A stretch of 64,000 nucleotides of DNA from Cyanidioschyzon merolae (GCA_000091205.1 AP006491.2), one strand, 5' to 3'. Positions 5,350 to 31,749 are shown, counted from the stretch's first letter. Notes: generated by a model from the letters alone, not told the origin. Program-made: numbers and translations.

Positions 5350-5782
5350 GTGCAGTAATGCAAAGACAACACGAGCAACCAAGGTTACCTCGGTTGCGCT
5401 TCAAGGCGCCTCAGCGTCTACCGTACCAAAGACTGCAACGGAAACCGGGAGCAATGAAGGAATGAATTCCGTTGAGCGATCAACTTGCGACATAGATGTA
5501 CAGAACGTACAAGAGCAATCTGGGTGTCGGACACGTCTCCTTCATCGAGCGGGGAGGCGTCTCGCGCAGTGCACGCATCGCTCTCGGTGAGCGTATACCT
5601 GGGAAATCAGGCAGTCAACTGACACGATGCGTACGCCGTTGAAGCGAAACGCGATCCTGATCAGTAGGGTGTTGTTGAACCGGAAAAAGTTGGATTTCAA
5701 TTCAGGTCGTAGCCAAGTACAGTTTTTCACTTCGTATTTGTTTCAACCTTCAAACAAGTCTAGACAAGTGTTTTTTCGCAGT

Positions 5783-5790
5783 ATATAACA
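5783..5790 (+). promoter_or_regulatory. TATA-like box (TATATAAC) about 210 bp upstream of the element ATG
   Basis: The context cgcagtatataacagaagcgtt is conserved in copy B at 15154-15161 as catataac. It is degraded in copy C. Confidence 0.35.
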
Positions 5791-5998
5791 GAAGCGTTCA
5801 AAGAGCGTTCTTTTTCAAAAAAAAACCTAAAAAAGGAAAGCTTTGAGAAAGCAAGCTGACGATCCTGGAGGGCTAGGGTCGCCGGCCGCTAGAGACAAAC
5901 AAAAAGCAGTGCCGAGTCCAGAAGAAAAGGAAGAGAAGAAGAACCGAAAGCGGGAGGCCCTACGTCGGAGGCGGCAAGAAACATGACTGTAGAACGAG

Positions 5999-8193
5999 AT
6001 GGAGGTGAAAACCTTTCTTCTTGGACATATCAAGGATCCCTACAGGGAAAAGTTGCGAGAAACTATCGAAAAACGTGTCGACTCGTACTCCAAGAGTATT
6101 GCCAAGGCGTCGTCAGGACTGATGCATATGGCGAGGGAGATGTATCGCGACGTAACGCACATCGAAACGGTCGAGATTCCAGACGAGCTTTTCGACAAGA
6201 CCTTTATTCGTCACTTGATGCTTGGCGCAGAGAAAGCGCCGAGGGAAAATGTGCTAGTGCATGCCCTCCACGAAAAACATCCCTTTTAGAGCTTCGACGG
6301 TACTCGATACACAATTGACTGGTGCATTTACACATACGGAGCGATGAAGTACATCACGAACCTGAAGAACCATTTGACTATGAACCTCGAACGCTTCATG
6401 ATACGCGCCGTGTTTGCGCTGTACCCTGGCATCGCTCGCAAAGGAAAATGGGCGATTACCAATGGCGTCACGAACGATCGCAAGCATGAAGATGCTATCG
6501 AGCTCGTCGACAACAAGACATCACGTAAGCGAAAGAATGAAGCTTCTGTAATCCGTGCGGCCATACACGAGTACCGTACAGTCTTGGGGTTGGCAAATCC
6601 GACAGACAAGATATCAGAGTTGAAAAAATATAAGGAATGGTACTATCGCCTCGTCCTGCGCTATTTTGTGTTTCTGGACCGAGAACTCGAACGCAAGGCA
6701 GAGGCGAGGCTGAGTGAGGAAAAAAATGAAGAGTGGGAGAGACGGAAGGCTTTCCTAATGGGTAAGCGCTTCAACGTCGTTCCAACGTGCAAGATCAAGT
6801 GACATTTGTGACTATCGACTCTAGAATCCTTCACGCCATCATGAAGGAGATCAGTCCGGAGTTCAGTGTCAGCAAGGAGAAGTTCTCCGGTGAAAACCGG
6901 GAGAGGTACTGGAAAAATATCTTCGATTTCAAACGCTTGAGAGTGAGCAAGGAAACGTTGTTCACCGGGATGTTTGAAACCGATGGAGTAGCCTAGTGTG
7001 TACACTATCGGCGGTTCAAGAAAGATCGTCCTGGTCCGCCGTCGGCTGTGCCCGTGACGAAGGATGAAGAAAAGAATGAGGCGGATCCTGCGACGCAGGA
7101 GGTGGAGGAGAACGAACTTATCTTTGACGCGGCGAATCATGAAGATGAGGAGGAGGCGGATCCTGTGACGCAGGAGGTGGAGGAGAACGACCTTGTCGTT
7201 GACGTGGCGAAGCATGAAGGAAAGAAGGAGGCGGATCCTACAATGCAGAAAGTGCAGGAGAACGACTTTGTCGTTGGTGTGGACCCTGGAAATACGAATA
7301 TCATAACCATCGCAGCACCCAAGCGCGCGGAAGATGGTGCTGATGGTAACTTGCGTCGGAAAGACATGCGTCTTTTGAGGTTCTCAAGAGCTAGATATTA
7401 CTGAGAATCCGGTGTAATGAATGCAAGGAAGAAAACCGAGAAATGGAATTCAGGAATGAAAGATCACCTAAAAGCTTTGAGCGAGGTGACGAGCCGAGGA
7501 ACCGACTTTGAAACTTTTCGGAAATTCATGGAAGATCGGTTTGCGCATTGGGATGCGCTGTGGGAGGAGTATACCATGCCCCGGTGGGCTTGTTTGCGTA
7601 TGAATTTGTATTGTGGGAAGCAGCGGGCGTTCGCCAACTTCTTCAATCAGTTGAGCGCCTTGAAGGAGGACCAGAGTCAGAGGCTTGTAGTAGCGTATGG
7701 GGCAGGCCGCTGGAAGACCCAAAAAGGAACTATGCCACCTCCAACGACAAGAACGCACAAGGAGTGCGCACAACGTCTCGTTACGATACCTGTAGACGAG
7801 TTCCGAACATCCTATACACACCATGAACTGGGATGTACACTTCAGAAAGTGGAGATGGAAAAGTGTTAGCGGAGCCCTGAAGACATAGCAAAGTACGGTC
7901 CTTTGACGGAAGAGGAAACGGAAAGGAGACCGAAAGTTCGAGGGCTACTCGCATAAGTGAATACAACTAACGGGAAGAAACCGATGGAACTCGTGAACCG
8001 GGACTTAAATGCCGCTATCAATATCCGAAAATGTGCGATGCTGGAGACGAGACCTCCAGAATGGACAAGAGAGAACTTTGTTGGACAACCTCTTGAAGTC
8101 GAACTATATGAGAGAAAGTTTGAAGCAGTAGTCGGTGGCCGGTCCAAAAAGACGGGTAGGCGTCTGCACGTCAGTTGGAGACGTCTTGTCTAG
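5999..8193 (+). pseudogene. TnpB/Fanzor-like RNA-guided nuclease homolog, copy A (RuvC-I, TS/zinc-finger block and RuvC-III present; several premature stops)
   Basis: MEVKTF...HEKHPF is followed by a stop. In-frame TGA codons occur at SRARYY*ESG (7399) and EMEKC*R (7867) where copy C has sense codons. [17 protein letters not shown] is at 7260-7330. [17 protein letters not shown] is near 7790. VNRDLNAAINIRK is near 8000. Confidence 0.75.
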
Positions 8194-8280
8194 GGCGGCC
8201 CGGACGCCACTACTGTACACGGTCGGCTTCGTTCGAGTTCAGAACGACGTTTGGCTGTGGTGTTGAATGTCGAGCGCCGA
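8194..8280 (+). other. Conserved structured 3' non-coding tail of the element; candidate fRNA/omegaRNA scaffold
   Basis: The tail is conserved in all four copies immediately after the nuclease stop. Its sequence is gtxgtgggtxgccggtcgaaaaagacxgggaggcgtctgcacgtcagxtggagacgtxxtgtctagggcg...gccactactgtacacggccxgcgtcgttcgactt. It contains a GCGTCT...AGACGC hairpin. Homology between copies ends about 40 nt past cgttcgactt. Confidence 0.4.
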
Positions 8281-10780
8281 TCAGCCTCCGACCCAGTCTC
8301 GAGAGCAAAACTGGTCTCAGGTCTCGAGCACTGTCGTCGAAGTTGCCCACACAGTGGACGTTCACGTTCAACCCGTGTGCTTCGTCGATCTGAGCGAGGA
8401 AATTCACGCCTTCGCGCAGCTAGAAAAGTTTGCGAAGTGTGAATCATCCGAAGTTATCATAGATCTTAATGTCCGAAATACACATCAAGCTGTTGGGGCC
8501 CTCGTTCGCTGTCTGGAGGAGCGCGGAAAGTTGCCAGCTCACTCCGGAGACTTGCTACGGCGGCAGCTCCTTGGCGCAGAGCCACCGTCACTCTTTCAAC
8601 TTGCACAGCAGGGGCTTCATATGTCTAGTGGGGGAGACGTACTCGGCCACGCTTCTGGATACTGGACACATAGCATACAGGGGCCCTCTTTTATTATTGG
8701 GTATACCGAAACCCCTTTGTTGCTTAGTGACGAGGAAGCAGTAGCAGTTGCACGGCTCGCACACCCGCTCAACGCTGGGGCACTCAACAACTCGCTGACA
8801 CGCTTCCTAGTACTTGTACTGACGCTTGCGCACGATACACCCCAGGTTCGCCGGGCGTCCGAAATGGCACGCGTTTTCGCTTCGCTTTTCGCAGATGAAG
8901 TATTCTACGACGAAGCTGTCGAGGCGTCCGATAGAGCTTCTTTCCTGGAGGCTATCCATCGTTTCCTTGAACGGCAACGGGACGCTGCACGAGAACGCGA
9001 AGCGCTGCATCGAAGCGTTCGATTGGCGACAGCAGCCACGGTGACTTTCTTCGATGATGATAATCATGTTGATGGTGATGGCGTTGCGGAGTATCTTGGT
9101 GGTACAGATGGCGGTACCCTTTCTGGGTGCAGAACAAAAGATGTGACTATTAACGACAATTTTGGTATCATGAACGCTCGCCTCGACCGATACTTCAAAG
9201 CACAAGGATATTCGAATCTGGATACGGTGCCACGCTGGAAGTACTGGTTGGCGCTGTTCTTTCGCTTTCCGGGGGTATTGATGGCTGCAGATCTTCGCCG
9301 CCGTCTACCCCATTATCGATCCGACTGGACAGCGGAATGGAACAAGATTCACGCTCTCGGAAAGTATTTCTTCGCGAGTATTTTTCTCATATTTACAGTC
9401 ACGTTGCCTGCGATTGTTTTCGGCGTTATAGCGAGTCGCACGACTCACGGAGAGATTGGTGTCATCGAGTGTCTGTTTGCCCAGGGTGTACTGGGCATTG
9501 GTTTTGCGTTCTTCAGCGCCCAGCCGCTGATGGTGAATATGGTCACTGGTCCCACCATCGTCTACATTCAAGTGCTCTATCGCTGGTCCCAGAGGCTCGG
9601 GTTCGCATTTCTCCCCTTTTTCGGATGGACGGGTATTTGGATGGGCATTTTTGTGATGTCGTATGCGATCATGAATACGTCAACACTCATACCGTACCTT
9701 GGCCGATTCACTGATGAGATTTTCCAAACCTTTATTGGAATCATTTTTATTCAATATTGGTTTACGGAATTTGTCCGAGTTACGCACACCGGTTACGAAC
9801 AGGTCCTTTTATTCTTGGTGCTTTCTCTGGGAACGCTTCTGCTTGCGTTACTTCTGGTGTCTGTACGAGGCAGTTTCCTGCTACGCCCCATACTGCGATC
9901 CATTCTGGGGGACATCGGCCCCGCTCTCTCTGTTTTCATTTGGACCGGTCTGTCGTACGCGTTCGATCCGATTGATGTGCCTCGTCTGCAGATACCGGGC
10001 TCTGTTGGTTACAGCACAACGACTGGACGACCGTGGATTGTCCCCCTAGGAAGTCTATCCGTCGGCTATGTATTTTTGGCCATCGTTCCCGGCTGGCTGC
10101 TCTCGCTCATCGTCTACATTGATCAACAGGTGTGTACTTATATCGTGGAACGACCGGAAAATCGCTTGCGCAAAGGCACTGGGTACAGTTGGAATCTTTT
10201 TGTGACTGGCGCTCTTGCCGTTCTTGCCTCGATTCTCGGCATACCTTGGATGTATGCAGGGCTGCCACACTCGCTTTTGCACGTTTATGCACTTGCTGAA
10301 ATTGAGGACATAGAGCTCATGGGAAGACGATGGATACGTGTTCTTCGTGCGCGGGAGGTGCGCATTGCTGCACTAAGCGCTTACCTCTTTGCCTTGTTGA
10401 TCATTCTGGCCAAACCAGCTCTAGATCAGCTGCCGATCTATGTGTTGTACGGCTTTATTCTGTACATGGGTGCAGCTTCATTTCTGAACAACCCTCTCTG
10501 GGATCGATTCGTTCTCTTGTTTACGCAGCCAACCAAGTACCCACCGACACATTATGTTCGACGTGTCCCCATGAGTCACCTGCACCTCTACACCTCTGTT
10601 CAGGTAATCCTTACAGTCGTTCTCTTTTTTGTCGCGGTCAATTTTTATCGAGGTGCAACTCTATTCAATACTGGCCTCATCTTTCCATTGGTCCTGTTCC
10701 TTTTCGTCCCATTCAAGTGGATGGTGTTGTATCGCTGGTTTCCGCGACGTGAGCTGCGCGTGCTTGAAAATCAGCTTTAG
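8267..10780 (+). CDS. SLC4/Band-3 family anion exchanger (bicarbonate transporter-like)
   Basis: An 837-aa ORF. FSAQPLMVNMVTGPTIVY matches the GQPLLV..SGP..VF motif. FTDEIFQTFIGIIFI matches YTQEIFSFLISLIFI of AE1. There are 10 or more hydrophobic segments after a hydrophilic N-terminal domain of about 330 aa. The ATG at 8267 lies inside the conserved 3' tail of element copy A. Confidence 0.85.
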   Translation: MSSADQPPTQSREQNWSQVSSTVVEVAHTVDVHVQPVCFVDLSEEIHAFAQLEKFAKCESSEVIIDLNVRNTHQAVGALVRCLEERGKLPAHSGDLLRRQLLGAEPPSLFQLAQQGLHMSSGGDVLGHASGYWTHSIQGPSFIIGYTETPLLLSDEEAVAVARLAHPLNAGALNNSLTRFLVLVLTLAHDTPQVRRASEMARVFASLFADEVFYDEAVEASDRASFLEAIHRFLERQRDAAREREALHRSVRLATAATVTFFDDDNHVDGDGVAEYLGGTDGGTLSGCRTKDVTINDNFGIMNARLDRYFKAQGYSNLDTVPRWKYWLALFFRFPGVLMAADLRRRLPHYRSDWTAEWNKIHALGKYFFASIFLIFTVTLPAIVFGVIASRTTHGEIGVIECLFAQGVLGIGFAFFSAQPLMVNMVTGPTIVYIQVLYRWSQRLGFAFLPFFGWTGIWMGIFVMSYAIMNTSTLIPYLGRFTDEIFQTFIGIIFIQYWFTEFVRVTHTGYEQVLLFLVLSLGTLLLALLLVSVRGSFLLRPILRSILGDIGPALSVFIWTGLSYAFDPIDVPRLQIPGSVGYSTTTGRPWIVPLGSLSVGYVFLAIVPGWLLSLIVYIDQQVCTYIVERPENRLRKGTGYSWNLFVTGALAVLASILGIPWMYAGLPHSLLHVYALAEIEDIELMGRRWIRVLRAREVRIAALSAYLFALLIILAKPALDQLPIYVLYGFILYMGAASFLNNPLWDRFVLLFTQPTKYPPTHYVRRVPMSHLHLYTSVQVILTVVLFFVAVNFYRGATLFNTGLIFPLVLFLFVPFKWMVLYRWFPRRELRVLENQL

Positions 10781-12451
10781 ATGGAAATTTCTGATCGAGT
10801 CTTGGGAGTTTTCCAGTAAAATTGGCCATCGCAGATTGATAGATAGACTGTAGAGTCGGAAATCGTGTTTACATTTCATCGAAGCGCAAATTGCTGGGGC
10901 AGGCATGTATCAGCAGAGGCCCTTTTTGCGAGTACGGGAGGTAGGTGCTTTCCTGATGCGAGGCCGAGATCTCGAGTCCAAAGTGATCCGCTGATGCTTG
11001 CTTTTCCAGAGGTAGAGACTCCCTTTGCCGGAACTGGTCGTGATTTGTACCCACAACCGGTACGGAAGGCACGTCAGTGAAGAGATTCGCTACGACTATA
11101 CGCGGTATCATACGATTATGCTGCGGAGATCTCGGATACGAGAGCCGAAATACAACACGTGGCGCTGATAAAAACAACCCGCTTGATTGCATGCGACTTG
11201 TTGGACATTCGGGAACAAGGCGGTTCATTTTGGAACGCCCATGCCAGCATACCTTCTTTGTTTATGTTTGTTATTCTCGCTGGTATTCGCGAATCGACCG
11301 TGTCGCATAGATTGGAAATGAGCCGTGGAAAGAGTACATGCTGTTATCATCGGACAACGTCATACGAGATTACAAGTGAAACACAGTGATTCTAGGGTCA
11401 TCAAACGGATGAACGAGTTTTTCGTTGTACTTATCTTGACCCTCCTACACCCAAAACTAAACACAGAAATATCGCCTACAAGACTGTGTCCGGGTTCATC
11501 CTTTTCTTTGCATGCGACCTCGAAGAGAGACTACAATCACCTACAGGGTGTGAATGGTCCACATCGTTGATTCGGACAGCGATCAAGGGACACAGACGGA
11601 CAGAAGTAAGGCATTATTTATTGCAGACCGCCACGCTCCGAACAGGGCAAAATCGAATTCATACTCAAACGCACGCGTATCTCTCGGGAGAAAGAGGTAT
11701 GGATCTCGAATGGTGAAGTTCTAGTCAAGAGAAATACTATTCTTGAATATGGGTACTCGGAGGTTAAGCGTAAACCCCTGATCGTAAAAGAGACAGCGCG
11801 CAACCTGACAACATCGGTCTTACCAGTTTCCAAGTACATCGTGTGCTGGGAATCGCGGAACTTGCAGCATAACTCAATGACACATGTTCCTTCCGAGTAC
11901 TTCGCAATGCCTCCTTCACAAAACCATAGAACCCGATCGTCGATGACGTCGGTCTCCATCACATAGAAGCGGACGGAAAATACGCAGCTGATATTGGCAG
12001 CTGTTGCTATTTGGTCCTTCCCATTCTATCTGGACAAAATCAGCAACTGGGATCTTCTCTGCAGTCAGACGATGATCGTGTATACACAGATCACTTAGAG
12101 AGTTGTTCGAGTTCGTGAAATTGAACTTCTTTGATAAAACCTTCCTCGACATATCGGTGACCTACTTTACCAGCTCATAGCCACCGTCATCTTCCTCGTA
12201 CATATGAAGGAGGAGGAAGAAAGGCGAGCGCCAAACTGTAGGCGTGCTCGCGACGGCAAGACTGGATTGATTTACTAGAAGAAGTAACTTTCGTCGCACG
12301 GTCCATCCCGCACAAACGACTCCTTTTGGAAACAAATGCATCCACAGTAAGCTGGCCACTGCCAAGCACTCCTTCGGTGTGGATGAAAAACGGTGTAACG
12401 GGAAGGATGAGAAGCAACGGGAAAGAAAGGAAGAGAATCCTCCAGGAAGAC

Positions 12452-13660
12452 GACCAAGGAGGACTTGGGGCAAAAGCTGTCGGAGCGGAAACATCTTTCA
12501 GGAACCATCGTCAAGGCCTCCGTCCTACAAATTACCATCAGGAATAATCTCCCACACAACGAAATGCTCAACATCGTTCCCGATCGCGTGGCTTCCGTCT
12601 CGACGCAAGGTAAACCCAGTTTCCCGCTCCACGATGCATGTCGCCGAGCAGGTGTTCGTACCAGTCTCGGACGCAGAGCTGCTAGCAGCCGGGATTCCTC
12701 GGGAGCTTTTCGATCTCGGCTTTGTGCCATAACACAATGGATGCTCGGGACGGAAGACGCAGTGCGGTCCGAGTACAGGATCAGGGAGATACGCGCACAC
12801 ACACACATTACCCAGACTTGGTTGACGCTTCACTGCACAATGTTGACGATCGGAACATCTGCACTGCAGGCGGCCATAACACTATCAAACCGACCACTGC
12901 AATCAAGTCCATACGCCTGCCAAATGACGAGCGCTCCATGCAGCGCACCCTGTAGGCGTTCTATTCTCACGCTGGCGGCCCCGGTGAGTTGGTACTGACA
13001 CCAAAAAAGAATCTTCGCCTCTGCGCATACACGAGCGTCCATATCGCCCAGGCGGACAATCCGTGGCACGAATCCATGCGACAGTGGTGGTGCTGCCAAA
13101 AGATTCCATTCGACGGAGGCAGGTCTCTTGCATTCACCAACTTGTCCAATGCACTGAAAAGATAAGTGACCGAAAAGCCGTTTTGTTTTCCGGTGGTAAC
13201 CCGCGTCGCTGGACGTTCTGTGGCGAGCCATGGAGACGCCCATGTCCCTTCGACGAACGCACGCCGCAAGTGCATTGCTCCATGCCGAACGAATCCCATC
13301 GATGCATCCAGGGCGCCATCCAGGTATGTTGAGCACGGGCGCGCATGCACGAAGCTACAGAAGAAGGGCTTGAAATACATCCAGATGAACGAGATGGCGT
13401 GCGTCTCGCTGACTTGACGGAGATACGGATGCCTCGATCGGCATCCGAAAAGGACCCCTGCGATTCGGGAGCGTCCATCGTTTCTTTTTTTCTGCCGGAG
13501 GATATTTCCAGTTGATCTATTGACGACGCAGTGCGCCGTTGTTCGGCAGAGCGGAATGCTTCTGATCCAAAGAAATCAATGCCAAAGATACAACGCATTT
13601 GATTCCGGTCTGGAGAAATGCACTGGTATTGTATGAGCTGCAACCCAGGAGGTCTTGAGC
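12452..13660. repeat. Dispersed repeat, copy 1 of 2 (about 1.2 kb; second copy at 47486-48700, direct orientation, roughly 97 percent identical by eye)
   Basis: The ORF-track proteins are near-identical, 12465 MGQKLSERKHLSG... and 47509 MGQKLSERKHLSG.... The nucleotide match runs from cgaccaaggaggacttgg to tgtatgagctgcaacccag. An internal (CA)n is present. No recognisable domain. Confidence 0.8.
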
Positions 13661-14967
13661 GCCGTACGTTTGCACTGGAAGTAATGCTTCCAGGCAAAAA
13701 GTAGAAGATATTGCTGTCCTATGGTTCGCTATTATTGACTAGTAAGTAAGAGCAGTACGGCTTCATTTGATCCAAAAGTGAAATCGACCACCGATAGGAT
13801 TGTGACAAGCGTCAATTGAGACGAAGAGCGCTCCTATAGCACGATAGACTCTATGACAGTTGCTACATAACAAACACGGATGCTCCTGCATTCAGCGTAT
13901 ATGTCGTGCAACTCCATGCTTCAATGTGTCCAGTCATGGTCGGCCGTTTGCGAGCGTGACAGTCCACGTCCACTCAGAGAAGCAGTTCTCCTCGAGAGTC
14001 AACGTAGGCACAGCGTTGGGGTCCACCTGATAGTAGCGTCTCACAACTGATACCAGCGTGATTAGGTGGCTTAACGGCACGATACGTTTATCCTAAAAAA
14101 TAAAACATCCCAGCAATACGACAGTCAGTGCATTGCTTTCTTCGGGAAGACGACTCGTCTATTGTTAGGCAACGTTGCGGTACGACACGCATCTCACCGG
14201 ACACGTAGGAGAAGGCGTATATCAGCAAGAGGGATCCTACTCGTCCCCCAGTATCCATTCGCATTCCAGAATGCTATCGGAAAGAAGGAACCGACGAGCG
14301 CCGCCGATCACACTGCTGGAGTATCACAGGGGCATATCATACTAGGTGTCCCTATTACGGCAATAAGCTCCTGAGCAAACCTTCTGCAACCATAACACAA
14401 ATTCTGAAATGCTCTCCCTATTTTGGATGACGTCCGAAGGCTCTATCCGTAACGTCCAGGATGGCACCTGTGCCTGAAACTCGCCCTGCTCCACCTACTG
14501 AGCGCACGTGGACCTGAAGGCGCACAGGAAAGAGCACCATACGCATCTGCTGCCTACATTGCCGAGTGAATCGTAAGACACCACGACCAAGAAAAGCGTT
14601 TATACACAGTACGCACCAACGCATGCCATCCCCCTCTGATCCGTCTGGAGTTGCCGGACGCACGCTTCACAGTCGCAACTAGCCGGCTGTCCCATGAGCG
14701 AGGTTCAGCTACAGATCCACCCATAACAGATTCGATGTCCCTGCTCGCCTCCTAACGTCCGACACTGCTCCCAGAAGCGAAGCGCCTCATTCGCACAAAC
14801 GCGTGCTTAAACGGCAACGTCCCTACCGTACGCAAGAACCGCGCCCGTACAACCCGCATCACTTGAACTGAAGCAGCGATACCTACAGTTCCCGATGCGT
14901 ACAGCGCTCGTCACGCCCGGGGCGCTTGGCGATGTGGCTTGCAGGGCAGAGAGCGTGGGCGAGCGCG

Positions 14968-17535
14968 CCTGGGAAATCGCGCAGTCAACTGACACGATGC
15001 GCGTGCCGCCGATGAAGGGAAACGTTGTCGTGATCAGTTACGTGTTGTTCTGCTGTAAACATCGGATTTCTGTTGAGGCCATAGCAAAATACAGTCTTTC
15101 GGTTCGGTTTTGTTTCAAACTTCAACCAAGTCTAGTAAAGTGCTTTCTCGCAGCATATAACAGAAGCGTTCATTGAGGGTTCTTTAAAAAACGAAAAACG
15201 GAAAGCTATGAAAAACCAGTCGACGATCCTGGAGGGCTAGGGTCGCCAGCCGCTAGAGACAAACAAAAAGCAGTGCCGAGTCCAGAAGAAAAGGAAGAAA
15301 AGAAGAACCGAAAGCGGGAGGCCCTACGTCGGAGGCGGCAAGAAACATGACTGTAGAACGAGATGGAGGTGAAAACCTTTCTTCTTGGACGTATAAAGGA
15401 TCCCTACAGGGAAAAGTTGCGAGAATCTATCGAAAAACGTGTCGACTCGTACTCCAAGAGTATTGTCAATGCGTCGTCAGGACTGATGCATATGGCGAGG
15501 GAGATGTATCGCGACGTAACGCACATCGAAACGGTCGAGATTCCAGACGAGTTTTTCGACAAGACGTTTATTCGTCACTTGATGCTTGGCACACAGAATG
15601 CACGGATGGAAAATGAGCGAATGCATGCCCTCCACGAAAAACATCCCTTTTACAGCTTCAATGGTACTCGATACAAGGGTGACCGGGATGTTTACGACTA
15701 TGGGGCGATGAAGTACCTCACGAACCTGAAGAACCATTTGACAGAGAACCTCGAACGTTCCATGATACGCGCCGTGGTTGCACTCCACCCGGGCCTGTCT
15801 CGCCAAGGAAAATGGGCGATTATCATAGGCATCACCAAAGATCGCAAGCATGAAGATGAGATCGAACTCGTCGACAAGAAGACATCACGTAAGAGAAAGA
15901 ATGAAGCTTCTGACATCCGTGCGGCCATACAAGAGTACCGTGCAGTCTTGGGGTTGGCAAATACGACAGACAAGATATCAGAGTTGAAAAAAGATAAGGA
16001 ATGATACTATCGCCTCATCCTGCGCTATTTTGTGTTTCTGGACCGAGAACTCGAACGCAAGGCAGAGGCGAGGCTGAGTGGGGAAAAAATGAAGAGTGGG
16101 AGAGACGGAAGCCTTTCCTAATGGGTAAGCGCTTCGACGTGGTTCCAATGTGCAAGATCAAGTCACATTTGTGACTATCGTCTCCGGCGTCCTTTACGGC
16201 ATCATGAAGGAGATCAGTCCGGAGTTCAGCGTTAACAGGGAGGAATTCACCTGTGAAAACCGGGAGACGTACTGGAAGAATATCCTCAATTTCAAACGTC
16301 TCAAAGTCAGCGCGAAAAAGAAATTCACTGGGATGCTCGAAACCGATGGAGCAACCATTTGTGTACACTATCGGCGGTTAAAGAAAGATCGTCCAGTCCC
16401 GCCCTCGGCTGAGTTCTCTGCGAAACATGAAGAAAACAAAGAAGCGAATCCTGAGACGCACAAATTGCAGGATGACGACCTTGTCGTTGGCGCGGTGAGG
16501 CATGAAGAATAGAAGGAGGCAGATCTTGCGACGCAGGAGGTGCAGGATAACGAACTTGTCGTTCCTGCGGACCCGGGGAATACAAATATCATAACCATCG
16601 TTGTGCCCAAGCATGCGGAAGATGGTACTGACGGCAACTTACGTCAGAAAGACACGCGTGTGTTGAGATTCTCGAGAGCGAGAAATTATCGAGAATCCGG
16701 TATAATGAATGCGAGGAAGAAAATCGAGACTTGGGATGCAGGAATGAAGGATCAAATGGAAGCTTTGAGCGAGTTGACTAGCCGACGAACGGACGTTGAA
16801 GCTTTTCGGAAATTCATGGAAGTTCGCATTGCGCATTGGGATGCGCGGTGGGAGGAGTATACAAAGCCCCGGTGGGCTCGTCTGCGTATGAATTTCTACT
16901 GTGGCAATCAGCGGGCGTTCGCGAATTTTTTTTAATAAGTTGAGCGCCTTGAAGGAGAATGAAAGTCAGAGGCTCGTAGTAGCGTACGGAGCAGGACGTT
17001 GGGCGTCGAGAAAAGGGACTACACCAGCTCCAACGACAAGGGTGTACAAAGAGTTCGCAAGGCATTTCGTTACGATACCTGTATTTGAGTTCCGAACATC
17101 GTATACACACCATGAGCTGGGTTGTATACTCCAGAGAGTCGAGATGGAAAAGTGCCTGCGGAGTCCTGAAGATATACAAAAGCACGTACCGCTGACGGAG
17201 GTGCAACTGGAAAGGAGGGCGAAAGTGCGAGGGCCTCTCGCATTAGTAAGTACAGCCAATGATGGCAAGAAACGTATGGAGTGTGTGAACCCAGATTTTA
17301 ATGCCGCTATCAATACAGGAAAAAGTGCGGTGCTGGAGAAAAGATCTCCAGAGTGGACAAGAGGGAACTTTATTGGACAACCTCTCAAAGTTGCACTATA
17401 TAAGAAGAAGTTGTAAGCAGTACTAGGTGACCGGTCCAAAAAGAAGGGGTGGCGTCTGCCCTTACTTGGAGATGTTTCGTCTAGGGCGCGGTTACAGCCA
17501 CTACTCTACAGCTGGCGACAGCGTTTTTTCTTTTG
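14968..17535 (+). mobile_element. Copy B of the TnpB/Fanzor-like repeated element
   Basis: Same 5' boundary and leader, with the TATA-like box at 15154. The N-terminal ORF 15363-16004 is uninterrupted over 213 aa. The conserved 3' tail is more diverged. Confidence 0.8.
15363..17416 (+). pseudogene. TnpB/Fanzor-like nuclease homolog, copy B (nonsense at KDKE*, frameshifts, RuvC-III NRD changed to NPD)
   Basis: TGA replaces TGG at about 16003. RuvC-I is [16 protein letters not shown]. The TS block is IPVFEFRTSYTHHELGC. RuvC-III is VNPDFNAAINTGK. Confidence 0.7.
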
Positions 17536-19491: not shown

Positions 19492-22400
19492 TCAAATGAT
19501 GTTCTGCACGTGTTGAATTCGAGGAACGACATAGAACCAACGACCGAATGCCGTCATATTCATCCCATTGTTCGTGCTAGATAGACCGCCGCTGCCACTG
19601 GTGCCTGAACCAGAAGTTCCGCTGCTGCTACCACTACCGTTGTCACTGGTGCCTGAACCAGAAGTTCCGCTGCTGCTACCACTGCCGGTGTAACTGGTGC
19701 CTGAACCAGGAGTTCCGCTGTTGCTACCACTGCTTGTGTCACTGGTGCCTGAGCCCAAATTCCCGGCTCTGCTGCTACTGCTGCTGACAGGGATAGCGGA
19801 TGTCTGCTCGATGATCCTATCCGGGCCTGAAGATGAAGTAGTTGGAGCATCGATACCTGTTCCAGGGCGGGGTGTTGACCCTAGACTGCTAAAAGTTGGC
19901 GGACTTATCGTGGTACGCATCGCTGGTGCGACTGCCCCCAGTGTGGATGAATGCGAGTTACGTTCTCCGCCGGGTTCCACATTGTCTAAAAAGGAGCCGC
20001 CAGAAGTGCTCGTTGTAATAACCGGAGTAAAGGGCGGTGGTAGTGTTGCCGTGGTCGCCACAGGTAGAGTGCTTACAGAGAGCGATGAGGCCTGTGATGA
20101 TGAGGGGGTCATCGACATCGCATTCATCTTAGCGATGTACGGAGATGGTGTGGGATGAACAACAGCTGGAGTAACCGTTGCAGTTGCTCTTGGAGCGCTT
20201 TCGGCACTATGGGTGCTGTTCCGCTCAGGTTCAGCAAAAAAGGCCTCAGAGACGCCAGACGATGCCGTGCCATTCGAGGTTGACGTACCCGCCTGGACGC
20301 ATACGCAAAGGTCGCCAAGGCAGACCTTGGCCAGGTTACCAGAACAGCTGCCGGTGGTCGTTACGCACCCGCAGATACCTCCCAATAGACATGTGTAGAC
20401 GACTCCTCCGGGGCACGTGGGAACCGAAGTAGACGAGGCCGTACTCGTCGATGTAGACGTCGACGTAGGCTGCGAAAATGACGGTGACGGTGTCGGTGTC
20501 CCCGCTTCAACACAAACGCACGTATCACCGACACACAACTTGACGAGGTTCCCAGGGCAGCTTCCGCTCGTTGTCACGCACCCACAGATATCACCCAACA
20601 GGCAGGTGTAGACGAGTCCGTCAGGGCAGGAAGCCGTCGTTGTTGGTGAACTCGTGCTCGTCGTTGTTGGTGAACTCGTGCTCGTCGTTGTTGGTGAACT
20701 CGTGCTCGTCGTTGTTGGTGACGTTGGCGACGGTGTCGGTGTTCCCGCCTCGACGCATACGCAGAGGTCGCCAAGGCAGACCTTGGCCAGGTTACCAGAA
20801 CAGCTGCCGGTGGTCGTTACGCACCCGCAGATACCTCCCAATAGACATGTGTAGACGACTCCTCCGGGGCACGTGGGAACCGAAGTAGACGAGGCCGTAC
20901 TCGTCGATGTAGACGTCGACGTAGGCTGCGAAAATGACGGTGACGGTGTCGGTGTCCCCGCTTCAACACAAACGCACGTATCACCGACACACAACTTGAC
21001 GAGGTTCCCAGGGCAGCTTCCGCTCGTTGTCACGCACCCACAGATATCACCCAACAGGCAGGTGTAGACGAGTCCGTCAGGGCAGGAAGCCGTCGTTGTT
21101 GGTGAACTCGTGCTCGTCGTTGTTGGTGAACTCGTGCTCGTCGTTGTTGGTGACGTTGGCGACGGTGTCGGTGTTCCCGCCTCGACGCATACGCAGAGGT
21201 CGCCAAGGCAGACCTTGGCCAGGTTACCAGAACAGCTGCCGGTGGTCGTTACGCACCCGCAGATATCTCCCAATAGACATGTGTAGACGACTCCTCCGGG
21301 GCACGTGGGAACCGAAGTAGACGAGGCCGTACTCGTCGATGTAGACGTCGACGTAGGCTGCGAAAATGACGGTGACGGTGTCGGTGTCCCCGCTTCAACA
21401 CAAACGCACGTATCACCGACACACAACTTGACGAGGTTCCCAGGGCAGCTTCCGCTCGTTGTCACGCACCCACAGATATCACCCAACAGGCAGGTGTAGA
21501 CGAGTCCGTCAGGGCAGGAAGCCGTCGTTGTTGGTGAACTCGTGCTCGTCGTTGTTGGTGAACTCGTGCTCGTCGTTGTTGGTGAACTCGTGCTCGTCGT
21601 TGTTGGTGAACTCGTGCTCGTCGTTGTTGGTGACGTTGGCGACGGTGTCGGTGTTCCCGCCTCGACGCATACGCAGAGGTCGCCAAGGCAGACCTTGGCC
21701 AGGTTACCAGAACAGCTGCCGGTGGTCGTTACGCACCCGCAGATATCTCCCAATAGACATGTGTAGACGACTCCTCCGGGGCACGTGGGAACCGAAGTAG
21801 ACGAGGCCGTACTCGTCGATGTAGACGTCGACGTAGGCTGCGAAAATGACGGTGACGGTGTCGGTGTCCCCGCTTCAACACAAACGCACGTATCACCGAC
21901 ACACAACTTGACGAGGTTCCCAGGGCAGCTTCCGCTCGTTGTCACGCACCCACAGATATCACCCAACAGGCAGGTGTAGACGAGTCCGTCAGGGCAGGAA
22001 GCCGTCGTTGTTGGTGAACTCGTGCTCGTCGTTGTTGGTGAACTCGTGCTCGTCGTTGTTGGTGAACTCGTGCTCGTCGTTGTTGGTGACGTTGGCGACG
22101 GTGTCGGTGTTCCCGCCTCGACGCATACGCAGAGGTCGCCAAGGCAGACCTTGGCCAGGTTACCAGAACAGCTGCCGGTGGTCGTTACGCACCCGCAGAT
22201 ATCTCCCAATAGACATGTGTAGACGACTCCTCCGGGGCACGTGGGAACCGAAGTAGACGAGGCCGTACTCGTCGATGTAGACGTCGACGTAGGCTGCGAA
22301 AATGACGGTGACGGTGTCGGTGTCCCCGCTTCAACACAAACGCACGTATCACCGACACACAACTTGACGAGGTTCCCAGGGCAGCTTCCGCTCGTTGTCA

Positions 22401-23553
22401 CGCACCCACAGATATCACCCAACAGGCAGGTGTAGACGAGTCCGTCAGGGCAGGAAGCCGTCGTTGTTGGTGAACTCGTGCTCGTCGTTGTTGGTGAACT
22501 CGTGCTCGTCGTTGTTGGTGAACTCGTGCTCGTCGTTGTTGGTGAACTCGTGCTCGTCGGCTTTTGGGTGGGCCTTGTGGTGCTTGTAGCGATCGAAGTT
22601 GGTTTCGATGTGGTGGATATGTTTGATACTGTAGTTGCGCTCAATACAGGACTTCTTACAGGTATCAACGTCGAGACTACGGTGATTAATGCTGTTGCAG
22701 ATGTTGAGACAACAGCGGTCCTTGAAGGCGGTACAGTAATTGTTTGCACCACCGTTGGTTCATGACTTGTTACAACCGGTGTTGGCGGTAGCGTCCGATG
22801 TACTGTTTGTGGCGGAGTTTGGGCCATATGGCTCTTCGTCGCCTCTGGAAATGGAGTCTGTTGAATTGGACGGGGCGTCTGAATAGGGAAAACCTCTACA
22901 CTACACGTTTCCGAGAGCAGCTTGCACTCATATGTGCAAAACTCGCCTAGAACTATGGAAGTCGACGTAGTGGATTCTTCACCATACGAAGACGTCCACT
23001 TTCTGCTTGTTTTCCAATCTAACTCATTCTGTCGTTGAACATTCCCTTTTTCATATACCGCTGTAGAAGACTTTGGACATATTTGCAGAGCCTCAAACTT
23101 TTGCACGCAAACCTTGCATGTGTTTTGGTATTTGTACTCCACACAAACTTCTACTGATTTGAAAACACATTCCTTCCTACATTTTTGAATATTTTTCTGC
23201 GGTGCTGCGTCTTCGAAAGTTGTGTCTGAGGTCCAACGACGTCTCCAAGTCACTTTTCCGTTCCAGGGACCACCATACTCGGGACTCTTTGTCTCAGGCG
23301 CTGCTGTTGTACAGACGATATTTTCTTTCGCACAGACCAATATATTTTCATACGCTGCGCACGTCTTTACTAAGCTACACGGCCCGACCACGGTCTCCGG
23401 CTCGCAGAACTGCCATCTTAGCCCGGAGCTCGTAAGCGATCTACTCTCTCCATCAGTTTTGATCGGTGAGCTCGCCTCTGTGGAGACGGTCAACAGTATC
23501 GCTTGTGCGATCGTAATACAGAGAATCACAGATAAAGTCCGCGTGAACTTCAT
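19492..23553 (-). CDS. Secreted mucin-like Ser/Thr/Pro-rich cell-surface glycoprotein with tandem Cys-rich repeats
   Basis: A 1353-aa ORF with a true ATG. The N-terminal signal peptide is MKFTRTLSVILCITIAQAILLTVSTEA. A Cys-rich N-terminal module follows. About five tandem units of roughly 150 aa each carry two 8-Cys modules (CPDGLVYTCLLGDICGCVTTSGSCPGNLVKLCVGDTCVCVEAG), separated by SPTTTSTS runs. The C-terminus is a Ser/Gly-rich 20-aa periodic tail. Confidence 0.8.
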   Translation of the reverse strand: MKFTRTLSVILCITIAQAILLTVSTEASSPIKTDGESRSLTSSGLRWQFCEPETVVGPCSLVKTCAAYENILVCAKENIVCTTAAPETKSPEYGGPWNGKVTWRRRWTSDTTFEDAAPQKNIQKCRKECVFKSVEVCVEYKYQNTCKVCVQKFEALQICPKSSTAVYEKGNVQRQNELDWKTSRKWTSSYGEESTTSTSIVLGEFCTYECKLLSETCSVEVFPIQTPRPIQQTPFPEATKSHMAQTPPQTVHRTLPPTPVVTSHEPTVVQTITVPPSRTAVVSTSATALITVVSTLIPVRSPVLSATTVSNISTTSKPTSIATSTTRPTQKPTSTSSPTTTSTSSPTTTSTSSPTTTSTSSPTTTASCPDGLVYTCLLGDICGCVTTSGSCPGNLVKLCVGDTCVCVEAGTPTPSPSFSQPTSTSTSTSTASSTSVPTCPGGVVYTCLLGDICGCVTTTGSCSGNLAKVCLGDLCVCVEAGTPTPSPTSPTTTSTSSPTTTSTSSPTTTSTSSPTTTASCPDGLVYTCLLGDICGCVTTSGSCPGNLVKLCVGDTCVCVEAGTPTPSPSFSQPTSTSTSTSTASSTSVPTCPGGVVYTCLLGDICGCVTTTGSCSGNLAKVCLGDLCVCVEAGTPTPSPTSPTTTSTSSPTTTSTSSPTTTSTSSPTTTSTSSPTTTASCPDGLVYTCLLGDICGCVTTSGSCPGNLVKLCVGDTCVCVEAGTPTPSPSFSQPTSTSTSTSTASSTSVPTCPGGVVYTCLLGDICGCVTTTGSCSGNLAKVCLGDLCVCVEAGTPTPSPTSPTTTSTSSPTTTSTSSPTTTASCPDGLVYTCLLGDICGCVTTSGSCPGNLVKLCVGDTCVCVEAGTPTPSPSFSQPTSTSTSTSTASSTSVPTCPGGVVYTCLLGGICGCVTTTGSCSGNLAKVCLGDLCVCVEAGTPTPSPTSPTTTSTSSPTTTSTSSPTTTSTSSPTTTASCPDGLVYTCLLGDICGCVTTSGSCPGNLVKLCVGDTCVCVEAGTPTPSPSFSQPTSTSTSTSTASSTSVPTCPGGVVYTCLLGGICGCVTTTGSCSGNLAKVCLGDLCVCVQAGTSTSNGTASSGVSEAFFAEPERNSTHSAESAPRATATVTPAVVHPTPSPYIAKMNAMSMTPSSSQASSLSVSTLPVATTATLPPPFTPVITTSTSGGSFLDNVEPGGERNSHSSTLGAVAPAMRTTISPPTFSSLGSTPRPGTGIDAPTTSSSGPDRIIEQTSAIPVSSSSSRAGNLGSGTSDTSSGSNSGTPGSGTSYTGSGSSSGTSGSGTSDNGSGSSSGTSGSGTSGSGGLSSTNNGMNMTAFGRWFYVVPRIQHVQNII
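19560..19800. repeat. 60-bp periodic repeat encoding the Ser/Gly-rich C-terminal tail of the mucin-like protein
   Basis: The 60-bp unit ggtgcctgaaccagaagttccgctgctgctaccactaccgttgtcactggtgcctgaaccagaagttcc is repeated. Confidence 0.7.
20180..22560. repeat. Coding tandem array, period 432-480 bp, about 5 units, with a nested 24-bp minisatellite (ggtgaactcgtgctcgtcgttgtt, 2-4 copies per unit)
   Basis: Identical antisense ORFs recur at 20417, 20873, 21305, 21785 and 22241. Unit length varies with the 24-bp copy number. Confidence 0.9.
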
Positions 23554-28200: not shown

Positions 28201-28619
28201 TTAAATAGCGCTGTCGATTTGCGCACCTGGGAGATCTGGTAAGCACGTGGCACGACTCAAATGCCGCACTTCAAGGAATACGAAATCGTGGCAGCATCTG
28301 TTCTTGTTGCTGTACCGTACAAGTTGTATTTGCGTTGCAGTCACACAAAAGTATAATTTTTCAGTTCATTCATGTTTCATACCTCAAACAAATGTATTCT
28401 AGTGTTTTTGTGCAGTACATAGCAGAAGCGTTTAGTGAGCCTTCTTTCCCAAAGAAACTAAAAGAGGGAAGTTATGAAATTGCGACTCGACGATCCTGGA
28501 GGCCCAAGGTCGCCAGCTGCTAGAAAAAAACAAAAAACAGTGCCGAGTCCAGAAGAAAAGGAAGAGAAAAAGAAGTAAAAAGGGAAGGCCCGACGCCAAT
28601 GCTTGCAAGAAAGACAACT

Positions 28620-30898
28620 GTACGACGAGAAGATGGTGAAAACTTTCCTTCTTAGACATATCATGGATCCCTACAGGGAAAGTTGCGAGAAGCTATCAAA
28701 AAACGTATCGAGTCGTACTCCTTGAGGATTATGAAGGTTTTCTCAGAAGTAATGCATTTGGTGAAGGAGATGTGTCGCGACGTGACGCACATGGAAACGG
28801 TCGAGATTCCGGACAAGTTTTTCGATACGACCTTTATTCGTCACCGGATGCTTGGTACAGAGGAAGCGCGGAAGAAAACGAGCAGGTTCTTGAACTGCAC
28901 GAAAAACATCCTTTTTACAGCTTTGAGGGTACTCGATACAAGGGTGACCGGGATATTTACATGTACGCGGCGATGAAGTACATCACAAACCTGAGGAACA
29001 ATTTGACAATGAACCCGGAACGTTTCATGATCCGCGCAGTGGTTGCACTCTATACGGCGCCTATCTCACAATGGAAAATGGGCAATTATCAAAGGTACCA
29101 CGAAAGGTCGCAAACGTGAAGACGAGATCGAACTCGTCGACAAGAAGACATCACGTAAGAGAAAGAATGAAGCTTCTGTTATCCGTGCGGCCATACACGA
29201 GAACCGTGCAGTCTTGGGGTTGGCAAATCCGACAGACAAGATATCAGAGTTAAAAAAGATAAGGAAAGATACTATCGCCTCGTGCTGCGCTATTTTGTGT
29301 TTCTGGACCGAGAACTCGGACGCAAGGCGGAGATGAAGCTGAGTGAGGAGAAAAATGAAGAGTGGGAGAGACGGAAGGCTGTCCTAATGGGTAAGCGTTT
29401 CGACGTGGTTCCAATGTGCAAGATCAAGTCACATTTGTGACTATCGACTCTAGAATCCTTCACGCCATCATGAAGGAGATCAGTCCGGAGTTCAGCGTCA
29501 ACAGGGAGGAATACTCCAGTGAAAACCAGGAGACGTACTGGAAGAATATCTTCAATTTCAAACGCCTCAAAGTGAGCAAACAAAAGGTATTCACTGGGTT
29601 GAACGAAACCGATGGAGTAGCCTTGTCTATACACTATCGGCGGTTGAAGAAAGAACGGCCAGTCCCGCCCTCGGCTGCGCCCGTGACGAAGGAAGAAAAA
29701 AACAAAAAGAGGATCCTGCGACGCAGGTGGTGGAGGATAACGAGTTTGTGGTTGACGTGGCGAAGGATAGGGATGAGAAGGAGGCGGATTCTGCGACGCA
29801 GGAGGTGCAAGATAATGACCTTGTCGTCGACGCTGCGAGGCATGAAGATGAGAAGAAGGCGGATCCTGTGATGCAGGAGGTGGAGGGGAACGACCTTGTC
29901 GTTCGCGCGACGAAGCATCAAGAAAACGAGAAGGCGGGTTCTGAGAAGAGGAGGTGCAGGATAACGACTTTGTCGTTGGCGTGGACCCTGGGAATACGAA
30001 TATCATAACCATCGCTGCTCCCAAGCGTGCGGAAGATGGTACTGACGGCAACTTACGTCAGAAAGACATGCGTGTTTTGAGGTTCTCGAGAGCGAGATAC
30101 TATCGAGAATCCGGTATAATGAATGCGAGGAAGAAAATCGAGACTTGGAATTCAGGAATGAAAGAGCACCTGGAAGCTATGAGCGAGTTGACGAGCCCCG
30201 GAGCGGATTATGAAGCTTTTCGGAAATTCATGGATGTTCGTGTTGCCCATTGGGATGCAGTGTGGGAGGAGTATAAAAAGCCCCGGTGCGCTCGTTTGCG
30301 AATGAATCTATACGGTGGGAAGCAGCGGGCGCTCGCGAACTTTTTCATTCAGTTGAGTGCCCTCAAAGAGGATCAAAGTCAGAGGCTAGTAGTATCGTAT
30401 GGGGCAGGGCGCTGGGCGTCGAAGAAAGGGACTACGCCAGCTCCTACGACGAGGGTGTACAAATATTGTGCATGGCGTTTCGTTATGATACCTGTAGACG
30501 AGTTCCGAACGTCATATGCACACCATGAACTGGGATGTACACTTCAGAGAGTGGAGATAGAAAAGTGTCAACGGAGCCCTGAGGAAATCGCAAAGTACGG
30601 ACCGCTAACAGAAGAGCCAATGGAAGGGAGGGCGAAAGTTCGAGGACTACTCGCACTGGTGAGCACAAAGAACGATGGCAAGAAACGTATGGAATTCGTG
30701 AACCGAGACTTTCACGCCGCTATCAATATCAGGAGATATGCGGTGCTGGAGAACAAACCTCCAGAGTGGACAAGAAAAACCTTTGTTGGACAACCCCTCA
30801 AAGTCGAACTATATGAGAAAAAGTTTGAAGCAGTCGTGGGTAGCCGGTCGAAAAAGACAGGGAGGCGTCTGCACGTCACCTGGAGACGCAATGTCTAG
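28620..30898 (+). pseudogene. Full-length TnpB/Fanzor-like gene copy C with 1-nt indels in the acidic-repeat region
   Basis: The frame is lost at [14 protein letters not shown], where copy A reads [15 protein letters not shown]. It is lost again at [14 protein letters not shown] before [13 protein letters not shown]. Confidence 0.6.
29954..30898 (+). CDS. TnpB/Fanzor-like RuvC nuclease core ORF (314 aa, uninterrupted in this copy); the upstream part of the same protein is frameshifted in the acidic repeat
   Basis: RuvC-I is [49 protein letters not shown] and [28 protein letters not shown] align to the TnpB wedge, YKae and V.P.YTSq.C blocks. RuvC-III is [17 protein letters not shown]. The C-terminal tail is basic. 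Confidence 0.7.
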
Positions 30899-31749
30899 GG
30901 CGATTTTCCCGCCACCGCTGTACACGGCCAGCGTCGTTCGACTTTCGAAAAGCGTTGTTGGTGTGTGCGTGCGAGCTCGCGGGCGCAATGAAAAGAAAAA
31001 CACAACAAAACGAACACGTCGCAAACTATTTATTCAAGAACAAGTATCTTAAAGCCCCACCAACCACGCCCGCCAGAGAGGTGTAATTTTTCCGGAGAAG
31101 CTCTGAAATTGGGTTAACAGGGGGTGTTTGGGCGACGGGGAAGGAAGCCCACGCCAGGGACCTTGACCGCAACGAACAGTGGGGCGGAGGCAGTAGCACC
31201 AGAAAATATGGATGAAAATTCTGAGCAGACATCCGCCCCTCCCGAAACAACGCTGCAGGTTCGGGCGCAAATCCTGGACCCATCCTCGAACTCAAGCTCA
31301 GGATTACCTCCTACCTTGTTCCCTACCTCAACTTTGGAAACAATCTAGGCGGATACTTTGGAAGACGGCTGGCAGCATGTTCGCGGTCGAAGCCGGAATA
31401 AGCGACTTGCCCGCCTATGTGTCTGGGGAGCGGATACGAAGCCGCTGAAAGGGTGGTTTGCAGAGTATTCCCAGTGGTTGAGGGGAGGTTAAAGCGTCGG
31501 GCAATAAAAAGGTCGCATTCGAATCGACCTTGACTAATGTACTTCTGATTCTACGCTAGCGCTGCGGCAGACACTCAATGAACGACTGGAATGCAGGAGG
31601 CGCTGGTGGCATGTACGCTCACACATACCGCGGAGGGTGCGTCTAAATCGACGGCGTATCTCTTGAGTACTGCAGCGCTACTCCAATTCCCTTACGCGCT
31701 ACGACTCAATAGGTTGCGCATCATGGAATGTTAGCGGGATCGCCTCGAA

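Follow-up and report, generated by a model that had tools for sequence, protein, structure and literature searches.

We analyzed a 64,000-nucleotide stretch of Cyanidioschyzon merolae DNA (GCA_000091205.1 AP006491.2; hereafter the window, with positions counted from its first letter) and focused on CMI007C, a gene whose product is a predicted secreted protein built from nested tandem repeats. The coding sequence is a single ATG-to-stop open reading frame (ORF) on the minus strand (19492-23553), which the ORF listing shows to be uninterrupted over 1353 amino acids. Its product matches the NCBI entry 'hypothetical protein CYME_CMI007C [Cyanidioschyzon merolae strain 10D]' residue for residue along the full length (100% identity, 100% coverage). 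An original prediction, made from the sequence alone, had placed a secreted, mucin-like protein of 1353 residues here. The ORF, the hydrophobic N-terminus and a SignalP-5 call agree with it and add the strand, which it left unstated. Overall it holds in part: the architecture is for the most part as described, and the cysteine spacing, the period of the tail and the range of spacer copies are not. CMI007C was known before as an annotated hypothetical protein and as an entry in a published expression table. The name is absent from the main texts returned by our literature search and from the H3K27me3 supplements. The architecture, the orphan cysteine module, the allelic dimorphism and the possible wall role in a cyanidialean alga have not been described previously.

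All segments of the protein are encoded on the minus strand. The first 27 residues (MKFTRTLSVILCITIAQAILLTVSTEA; 23473-23553) form a predicted signal peptide that contains the highest 19-residue hydropathy window of the protein (2.13), as expected of an h-region. In the rows for this gene in Data Set S8 of PMC13353863, SignalP-5.0 reports SP(Sec/SPI) and Phobius reports zero transmembrane (TM) segments. A non-repetitive N-terminal region with 14 cysteines follows (residues 28-222; 22888-23472), and then a linker rich in Pro, Thr, Val and Ser (residues 223-333; 22555-22887; T 23%, P 16%, S 12%, V 12%). The N-terminal region may contain an internal duplication (TWRRRWTSD...CRKECVFKSVEVC against DWKTSRKWTSS...CTYECKLLSETC, with the shared pattern W..RKWTS...CxxxC), of weak support given that 14 of 1000 shuffles reached the same alignment score.

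The tandem array occupies residues 334-1089 (20287-22554) and consists of a leading spacer and five units, in which the order is spacer, module A, a Thr/Ser-rich linker and module B. Tandem Repeats Finder (TRF) describes it as 5.0 copies of a 456-bp period with 94% matches, with 432 and 480 bp as alternative periods. Phased from the start of module A, unit 1 spans 456 bp (21997-22452; A 22336-22452, B 22123-22239; spacer ahead 22459-22559, 4.2 copies), unit 2 480 bp (21517-21996; A 21880-21996, B 21667-21783; spacer ahead 22003-22089, 3.6 copies), unit 3 432 bp (21085-21516; A 21400-21516, B 21187-21303; spacer ahead 21523-21633, 4.6 copies) and unit 4 456 bp (20629-21084; A 20968-21084, B 20755-20871; spacer ahead 21091-21153, 2.6 copies). 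Unit 5 is the last and has no trailing spacer (20287-20628; A 20512-20628, B 20299-20415, ending in VQAG; spacer ahead 20635-20721, 3.6 copies). The distances between successive A modules are 152, 160, 144 and 152 residues, or 456, 480, 432 and 456 bp. Thus the predicted units of about 150 residues with two 8-Cys modules each, in three lengths, are present as five units spaced by 144-160 residues. The regularity of the array is far beyond chance, because the 330-bp cores of the five units, from the start of A to the end of B, differ by only 0-2 nucleotides.

All differences in unit length are due to the number of 24-bp spacer repeats, which encode SPTTTSTS and match one another at 100%. This perfect repeat had been identified correctly as the source of the length variation, although its copy number had been given as two to four; TRF finds 2.6-4.6 copies, equivalent to three to five SPTTT motifs (in order 4, 4, 5, 3, 4). 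Modules A and B share 73% of their nucleotides and 31 of 39 amino acids, and TRF detects this relationship as periods of 213-219 bp with 66-69% matches. Modules A and B go back to an older duplication, and amplification of the A-B pair to five copies is very recent. Serine and threonine together make up 36% of the residues of CMI007C (in the array, T 23%, S 17% and P 10%), which, with the predicted signal peptide and the absence of TM segments, justifies the term mucin-like.

Downstream of the array, a non-repetitive region rich in Ser, Thr, Pro and Ala by composition (residues 1090-1262; 19768-20286) leads into a Ser/Gly tail (residues 1263-1325; 19579-19767). The tail contains 3.4 copies of a 48-bp, 16-residue repeat (19588-19752, TRF) and not the 20-residue period that had been stated. 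The final 28 residues (SSTNNGMNMTAFGRWFYVVPRIQHVQNII; residues 1326-1353; 19495-19578) carry no recognizable C-terminal glycosylphosphatidylinositol (GPI) or TM signal, based on hydropathy only and with no dedicated GPI predictor: the 19-residue Kyte-Doolittle windows range from -0.3 to 0.35. Residues R, H, Q and N occur in the C-terminal tail ...FGRWFYVVPRIQHVQNII. These features speak against a GPI anchor, which the original prediction had proposed to check. Each unit gives rise to one plus-strand ORF with a TTG start (20178-20432, 20571-20888, 21027-21320, 21459-21800 and 21939-22256); the five are duplicates of one another and had rightly been regarded as artefacts.

The window opens with CCCCCCATT (1-9), the complement of the telomere repeat AATGGGGGG, which is specific to Cyanidioschyzon merolae (PMC1955436). 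This places the window at the very left end of chromosome 9 and makes CMI007C subtelomeric, about 20 kb in. Between CMI007C and the telomere, genes encode a copper amine oxidase (3448-5382) and an anion transporter (8267-10780), two kinds of gene recorded at chromosome ends of C. merolae (PMC1955436). Long ORFs are sparse in the window and no tRNAs were found in it. With the exact match to a red-algal chromosome, these features led us to reject a bacterial reading; the window is eukaryotic. A dispersed repeat of about 2.6 kb occurs four times within the first 31 kb (5598-8259, 14963-17510, 28221-30944 and a partial copy at 2339-3344), always in the same orientation and with 77-86% identity; CMI007C sits between copies 2 and 3. 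The ORFs within these copies (15363-16004, 29290-30051 and 29954-30898) have no Pfam match, and the repeat may be a subtelomeric element, a promoter block or a decayed mobile element. The window also contains a pair of 1.2-kb direct repeats 35 kb apart (12448-13669 and 47492-48717; 97.7% identity) and a tandem array at 42077-42710 (offset about 66 bp, 91-92% identity in a self-BLAST).

The cysteine module and the search for relatives

The ten modules of the array contain 80 cysteines in five A-B pairs, with two CxC motifs per module. A regular expression with the spacing C-x7-C-x5-C-x-C-x6-C-x7-C-x4-C-x-C fits ten out of ten modules, and it replaces the pattern proposed originally (C-x5-C-x6-C-x-C-x6-C-x6-C-x5-C-x-C). 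Each 8-Cys module is itself composed of two 4-Cys halves with the consensus CPxxLVxxC(x)xGDxCxCV, in which 9-10 of 17 positions are identical. The nesting of the repeats is thus one level deeper than had been recognized. Each module retains one lysine. A single-sequence AlphaFold2 model (mean predicted local distance difference test score, pLDDT, 63.6; about 65-73 in the modules) predicts that each 4-Cys half is a beta-hairpin. The corresponding model of the N-terminal region was discarded as unusable (pLDDT 32).

The B modules of units 4 and 5 in strain 10D have the sequence GGICGC, where units 1-3 and every wild allele have GDICGC. The change from D to G is common to adjacent units 4 and 5 only. 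It is evidently a private mutation that spread from one unit to the next, and a trace of recent duplication or gene conversion within the array in the 10D lineage.

We searched a profile of the module exhaustively (HMMER) against 1.84 billion representative proteins and retrieved four proteins. Two of them (P0002 and P0003) are alleles of CMI007C itself. The third, P0004, lacks the cysteine pattern and was rejected as a false positive driven by repeats. The fourth, P0005, was rejected as a homologue given an alignment of 22 columns that includes three of the eight cysteines (hhalign probability 59%). It is a bacterial-type lipoprotein of 731 amino acids (lipobox LAFAGC) with about 14 Cys-rich repeats of the form CGxVxxxGxCxGxxxKYC and no Pfam family. 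A stretch of 22 residues (CGNVTEDGECAGNLAKRC) is common to this lipoprotein and the junction of the two half-modules, a likeness that is probably convergence.

Searches of other collections were also negative. No Pfam family matched the whole protein or any of four pieces at E<0.01, nor did any match residues 28-240. The PDB returned no match to the sequence of the whole protein, and the best hit of the module profile there had an E value of 2.1. With the medium-confidence module model, the best Foldseek hit had an E value of 1.4, and EGF and follistatin chains appeared only among the non-significant matches. The search for the cysteine module in other proteins, which had been proposed as a check, thus gave no convincing relative among the 1.84 billion representative proteins, in Pfam or in the PDB. 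By these comparisons the 8-Cys module appears to be an orphan, and the profile search found no paralogue that carries it.

A word-indexed search with the whole protein recovered only the protein itself and one metagenome allele, its 8000 candidates being swamped by Ser/Thr words. The same kind of search with the module pair or the N-terminal region missed even the parent protein, and its negatives are uninformative. Because these sub-region searches failed to recover the parent, orthologues of the N-terminal region may still be present in Cyanidiococcus, Cyanidium or Galdieria.

Allelic variation at the locus

A metagenome scan identified seven JGI contigs (L002-L008) with flanks that are 97.5-99.1% identical to the window, so all seven derive from the CMI007C locus. 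They fall into two types. Type-1 alleles (L002-L005) have the architecture of 10D. One of them, L002, spans the gene and has two units, compared with five in 10D, with spacers of four and three motifs. In L003 the first spacer has seven SPTTT motifs where 10D has four, and the contig ends in the second unit. L004 stops in the first spacer and L005 starts inside the last module. As these other contigs break inside the array, the count in L002 is doubtful: its two units may reflect short-read collapse, and variation in unit number is not proven.

The copy number of the 48-bp tail repeat can be read with more assurance, given that the repeat is anchored on both sides within the contigs. There are 3.4 copies in 10D, L002 and L008, 4.4 in L005 and 6.4 in L007, and the protein P0003 is similar to L007. 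This is good evidence for length polymorphism of the tail. The expectation of length polymorphism is thereby borne out in two places, in wild tails with 3.4, 4.4 or 6.4 copies and in a first spacer with four or seven motifs.

In type-2 alleles (L006-L008), the match to the window is confined to position 20466 and below, and it breaks off in the TSTSTS linker that precedes the last B module. On the upstream side of this single B-type module these alleles contain unrelated, in-frame Ser/Ala-rich repeats (SASASASLSASAS..., with periods of 12, 24 and 48 bp; L006 1-578, L008 1-543, L007 1-134), and the Cys-module array is absent from these stretches. In the Ser/Ala-rich stretch, the frame that continues that of the protein is the only open one. 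Both allele types occur in contigs of the sample series JGI24721.

All wild alleles keep the reading frame open. Between 10D and three wild alleles there is a single difference in the 999 nucleotides of the first 333 codons, a stretch better conserved than the flanking DNA (97.5-99.1% identity). At the other end of the protein, alleles hardly differ in the aromatic C-terminal peptide ...MTAFGRWFYVVPRIQHVQNII, although amino-acid changes accumulate just upstream of it. The C-terminal 28 residues are identical in L002 and L005 and have two changes in L007. This peptide may be a sorting, docking or polymerisation motif.

Expression and a proposed role outside the cell

C. merolae strain 10D is a wall-less haploid and the diploid phase is walled (PMC13353863, Plant Cell 2026), a phase that was described only recently (PMC13353863). 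Based on the CMI007C rows of Data Set S8 in that study (RNA-seq), the gene is expressed at 314, 280 and 290 transcripts per million (TPM; about 295) in the walled diploid MS1, at 120, 127 and 118 TPM (about 122) in haploid 10D, and at 1.9, 1.7 and 2.6 TPM (about 2; log fold change 7.4, false discovery rate 0) in the haploid MS1 Ha3. Regional subtelomeric silencing was considered as the reason for the low level in Ha3 and was rejected, as the rows for the neighbouring gene CMI004C give about 92 TPM in the same strain. Between the phases, 35-50% of the genes for secretory proteins differ in expression (PMC13353863). The Cyanidiophyceae lack cellulose synthases, and the wall that was analyzed in 'Cyanidium' is 50-55% protein (PMC13353863). 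Genes of the GT39 protein O-mannosyltransferases (PMTs) are expressed in all phases, and the subtelomeres of C. merolae have amplified PMT and rhamnose-synthesis genes.

We propose that CMI007C is a lineage-restricted, secreted modular glycoprotein of an extracellular layer. Most likely it is a structural part of the mainly proteinaceous, cellulose-free wall or matrix of the diploid, and is also released by some wall-less haploids. We give this reading odds slightly better than even, a probability of roughly 0.55. O-glycosylation is predicted from composition only, and we infer the disulfides in the modules, the incorporation into a wall or matrix and any mechanism of retention.

A cleavable signal peptide, predicted here and called independently by SignalP, would direct the protein into the endoplasmic reticulum (ER). 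There the twenty 4-Cys hairpins of the ten 8-Cys modules would oxidise into compact, disulfide-stapled beads able to survive pH 0.5-3 and 40-45 °C. O-glycosylation, probably by the expressed GT39 enzymes, would turn the Thr/Ser/Pro spacers, the Pro/Thr/Val linker and the Ser-rich tail into segments that are stiff and extended. Without a TM segment or GPI anchor the protein would be exported, and could be retained only through cross-links or non-covalent packing; disulfide exchange, or lysyl-oxidase cross-links through the one lysine per module, are speculative examples. At the DNA level, unequal recombination or slippage is expected to change the copy number of all three kinds of repeat: the units of 432-480 bp with their near-identical sequences, the perfect spacers of 24 bp and the tail repeats of 48 bp. 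Such events would lead to the length and architecture variants among the wild alleles, which are seen for the tail and the first spacer and are ambiguous for unit number.

Several observations weigh against a structural role in the diploid wall. CMI007C is well expressed in the wall-less haploid 10D, according to the Data Set S8 rows, and therefore cannot be strictly a wall protein. The wall function proposed originally is thus supported by the peak in the diploid phase and limited by the wall-less haploid that also expresses the gene. The adhesion role proposed alongside it gained no support. MS1 is a heterozygous diploid, Ha3 has one of its haplotypes only, and the mating type of Ha3 is opposite to that of 10D. 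The contrast between diploid and haploid thus confounds ploidy, haplotype and mating type, and the difference in expression could be allelic or linked to mating type and not to ploidy. No retention mechanism (GPI anchor, TM segment or known wall-binding domain) is visible in the protein. The structure of the module comes from a single-sequence model of medium confidence. Finally, the wild alleles carry 2-7 substitutions relative to 10D in codons 1090-1262, and every one of them is nonsynonymous, which fits relaxed constraint. Together with the conserved N-terminal region, these small counts suggest that the N-terminal region is constrained and that the C-terminal half may be relaxed or diversifying.

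The same observations can be read in other ways. The roughly 60-fold higher level in 10D than in Ha3 in the Data Set S8 rows, two strains of opposite mating type, would be expected if CMI007C were a mating-type- or strain-specific surface glycoprotein of gametes, acting in recognition or as an agglutinin on haploids of the 10D mating type, by analogy with the sexual agglutinins of yeast or Chlamydomonas. The Ser/Thr-rich design with Cys modules and the strong polymorphism, with two allele classes, resemble recognition molecules, and the exclusively nonsynonymous substitutions of the 3' half would fit as well. However, the highest level in those rows (about 295 TPM) is in the vegetative diploid, where gamete-specific genes are expected to be off. 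The gene lies on chromosome 9 and the candidate mating-type region (CMK076C-CMK078C) on chromosome 11, a wall-less gamete would need a membrane or GPI anchor that CMI007C lacks, and one haploid strain per mating type was profiled. We regard the agglutinin reading as unlikely. A more sceptical reading takes the same all-nonsynonymous 3' half, the lack of homologues outside the species in the module profile search, and the short-read metagenome assemblies that break and possibly collapse in the array, as signs of a mis-assembled repeat or of a fast-decaying orphan ORF without function. This is very improbable. The reference is a finished Sanger genome (PMC1955436) in which the units can be told apart by their spacer order (4, 4, 5, 3, 4) and two single-nucleotide differences. 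The frame is open for 1353 codons across every unit, and open also in all wild alleles. The mRNA is abundant in the Data Set S8 rows (120-300 TPM), and conservation over the N-terminal 333 codons exceeds that of the flanks.

The remaining two readings start from the acid habitat and from the cysteines. C. merolae has 15 TFF-like genes, mostly subtelomeric. TFFs are secreted together with mucins in the stomach, as the authors of PMC13353863 recall, and the literature we searched describes no mucin-like protein of Cyanidioschyzon. By analogy, CMI007C might be the mucin-like partner of the secreted trefoil-domain (K+T) proteins in a layer that resembles gastric mucus at pH 0.5-3. In the expression rows available for it, the TFF gene CMA001C (K+T) has the same order of expression (about 140 TPM in the diploid, 22 in 10D and 10 in Ha3). 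In its fullest form, which we consider an outside chance, CMI007C would be the missing 'mucin' of an algal counterpart to gastric mucus, a lineage-specific, disulfide-beaded, O-glycosylated polymer that forms, with the expanded subtelomeric trefoil proteins, a proton-resistant outer layer by which Cyanidioschyzon can live at pH 0.5-3, with the Cys-array and Ser/Ala-array allele classes both kept in wild populations. Against this partnership, the argument is one of analogy and takes in the expression profile of a single TFF gene, K+T proteins of the Cyanidiales have Thr/Pro/Ala-rich linkers themselves, and CMI007C lacks the VWD, CysD and CK domains of gel-forming mucins; it strikes us as unlikely, marginally more so than the agglutinin. 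The least probable of the readings, and by our estimate a very distant one, is that the CxC-rich modules chelate the heavy metals of acid hot springs outside the cell in the manner of metallothioneins. It would give a use to 80 cysteines in ten modules with two CxC motifs each, in a habitat that is metal-rich (PMC9812998). Yet the signal peptide would take the protein into the oxidising ER and from there to oxygenated surroundings at pH 0.5-3, conditions that disfavour the coordination of metals by thiolates. The even number of cysteines per module and the modelled beta-hairpins would fit disulfides better, and Pfam shows no similarity to metallothionein families.

The preferred reading, a building block of the diploid wall or matrix, matters for several reasons. 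According to published reports, protein makes up most of the wall of the Cyanidiophyceae, which may be proton-tight, and the structural proteins in it are essentially unknown. With an abundant transcript for a secreted protein, highest in the diploid, and with routine gene targeting in this alga, CMI007C is a candidate building block that can be tested directly. If the module folds as predicted, it would be a new small disulfide-rich domain that is stable at about pH 1 and above 40 °C, and of interest for protein engineering. Within a very compact eukaryotic genome, the locus cleanly illustrates how repeats evolve hierarchically in nature and how alleles can be dimorphic in structure. Should none of these readings hold, CMI007C is simply another orphan repeat protein.

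Comparison with known secreted proteins

Its place near a chromosome end also connects CMI007C to the K/T/H (kelch, trefoil, Hint) proteins of the Cyanidiales. Common to both are a subtelomeric position, a signal peptide, Thr/Pro-rich linkers and phase-biased expression. In contrast to that family, CMI007C has no kelch, trefoil or Hint domain (Pfam), is single-copy and not duplicated, and is located some 20 kb from the telomere, on the far side of the amine-oxidase and anion-transporter genes. The animal gel-forming mucins, in which Pro/Thr/Ser repeats are interrupted by Cys-rich domains, can be likened to it in composition only and in their secretion into an acid-exposed space. Trefoil-domain proteins, which accompany gastric mucins, are encoded in the C. 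merolae genome as well. At 1353 residues, however, CMI007C is much smaller, and Pfam finds no VWD, C8, TIL, CysD or cystine-knot domain in it.

The fungal Flo, Als and Epa adhesins resemble CMI007C in being subtelomeric and in having a signal peptide and central Ser/Thr-rich repeats that vary in number by recombination and so change the length of the protein, and O-mannosylation by PMT enzymes is plausible for CMI007C too. Unlike these adhesins, it has neither a GPI signal nor a PA14 or Ig-like N-terminal domain (Pfam, residues 28-240), its repeats hold predicted disulfide modules and are not purely Ser/Thr, and the gene is single-copy. Other Cys- or Pro-rich families were compared as well. 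Metallothioneins are small, cytosolic and without a signal peptide, whereas CMI007C is a 1353-residue protein with a signal peptide and no Pfam metallothionein match. Extensins and pherophorins have Ser-(Pro)3-5 or (Ser-Pro)n motifs, whereas the SPTTTSTS spacer has single prolines, and no pherophorin or extensin family of Pfam matches. EGF-like, laminin-EGF and TNFR-type profiles or folds gave no match to CMI007C in Pfam, in the PDB profile search or in Foldseek with the medium-confidence model.

In the way it would work, CMI007C resembles the Jacob lectins of Entamoeba and spore-coat proteins of the SP96/SP85 type in Dictyostelium, a comparison of general design and not of aligned sequences. 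Like CMI007C, these proteins are secreted without a membrane anchor. In them, short Cys-rich modules alternate with spacers that are rich in Ser/Thr and heavily O-glycosylated, an arrangement predicted for CMI007C. They are made for the walled life-cycle stage of a protist, the cyst or spore, as is proposed here for the diploid. The modules themselves differ: those of Jacob are 6-Cys chitin-binding domains and the Dictyostelium repeats are EGF-like, whereas the CMI007C module has eight cysteines in what are predicted to be two 4-Cys hairpins. Jacob lectins bind chitin, and no polysaccharide ligand is known for CMI007C. Thus, CMI007C is built, from a module without detectable relatives, to a familiar design in which cysteine modules are combined with mucin-like spacers.

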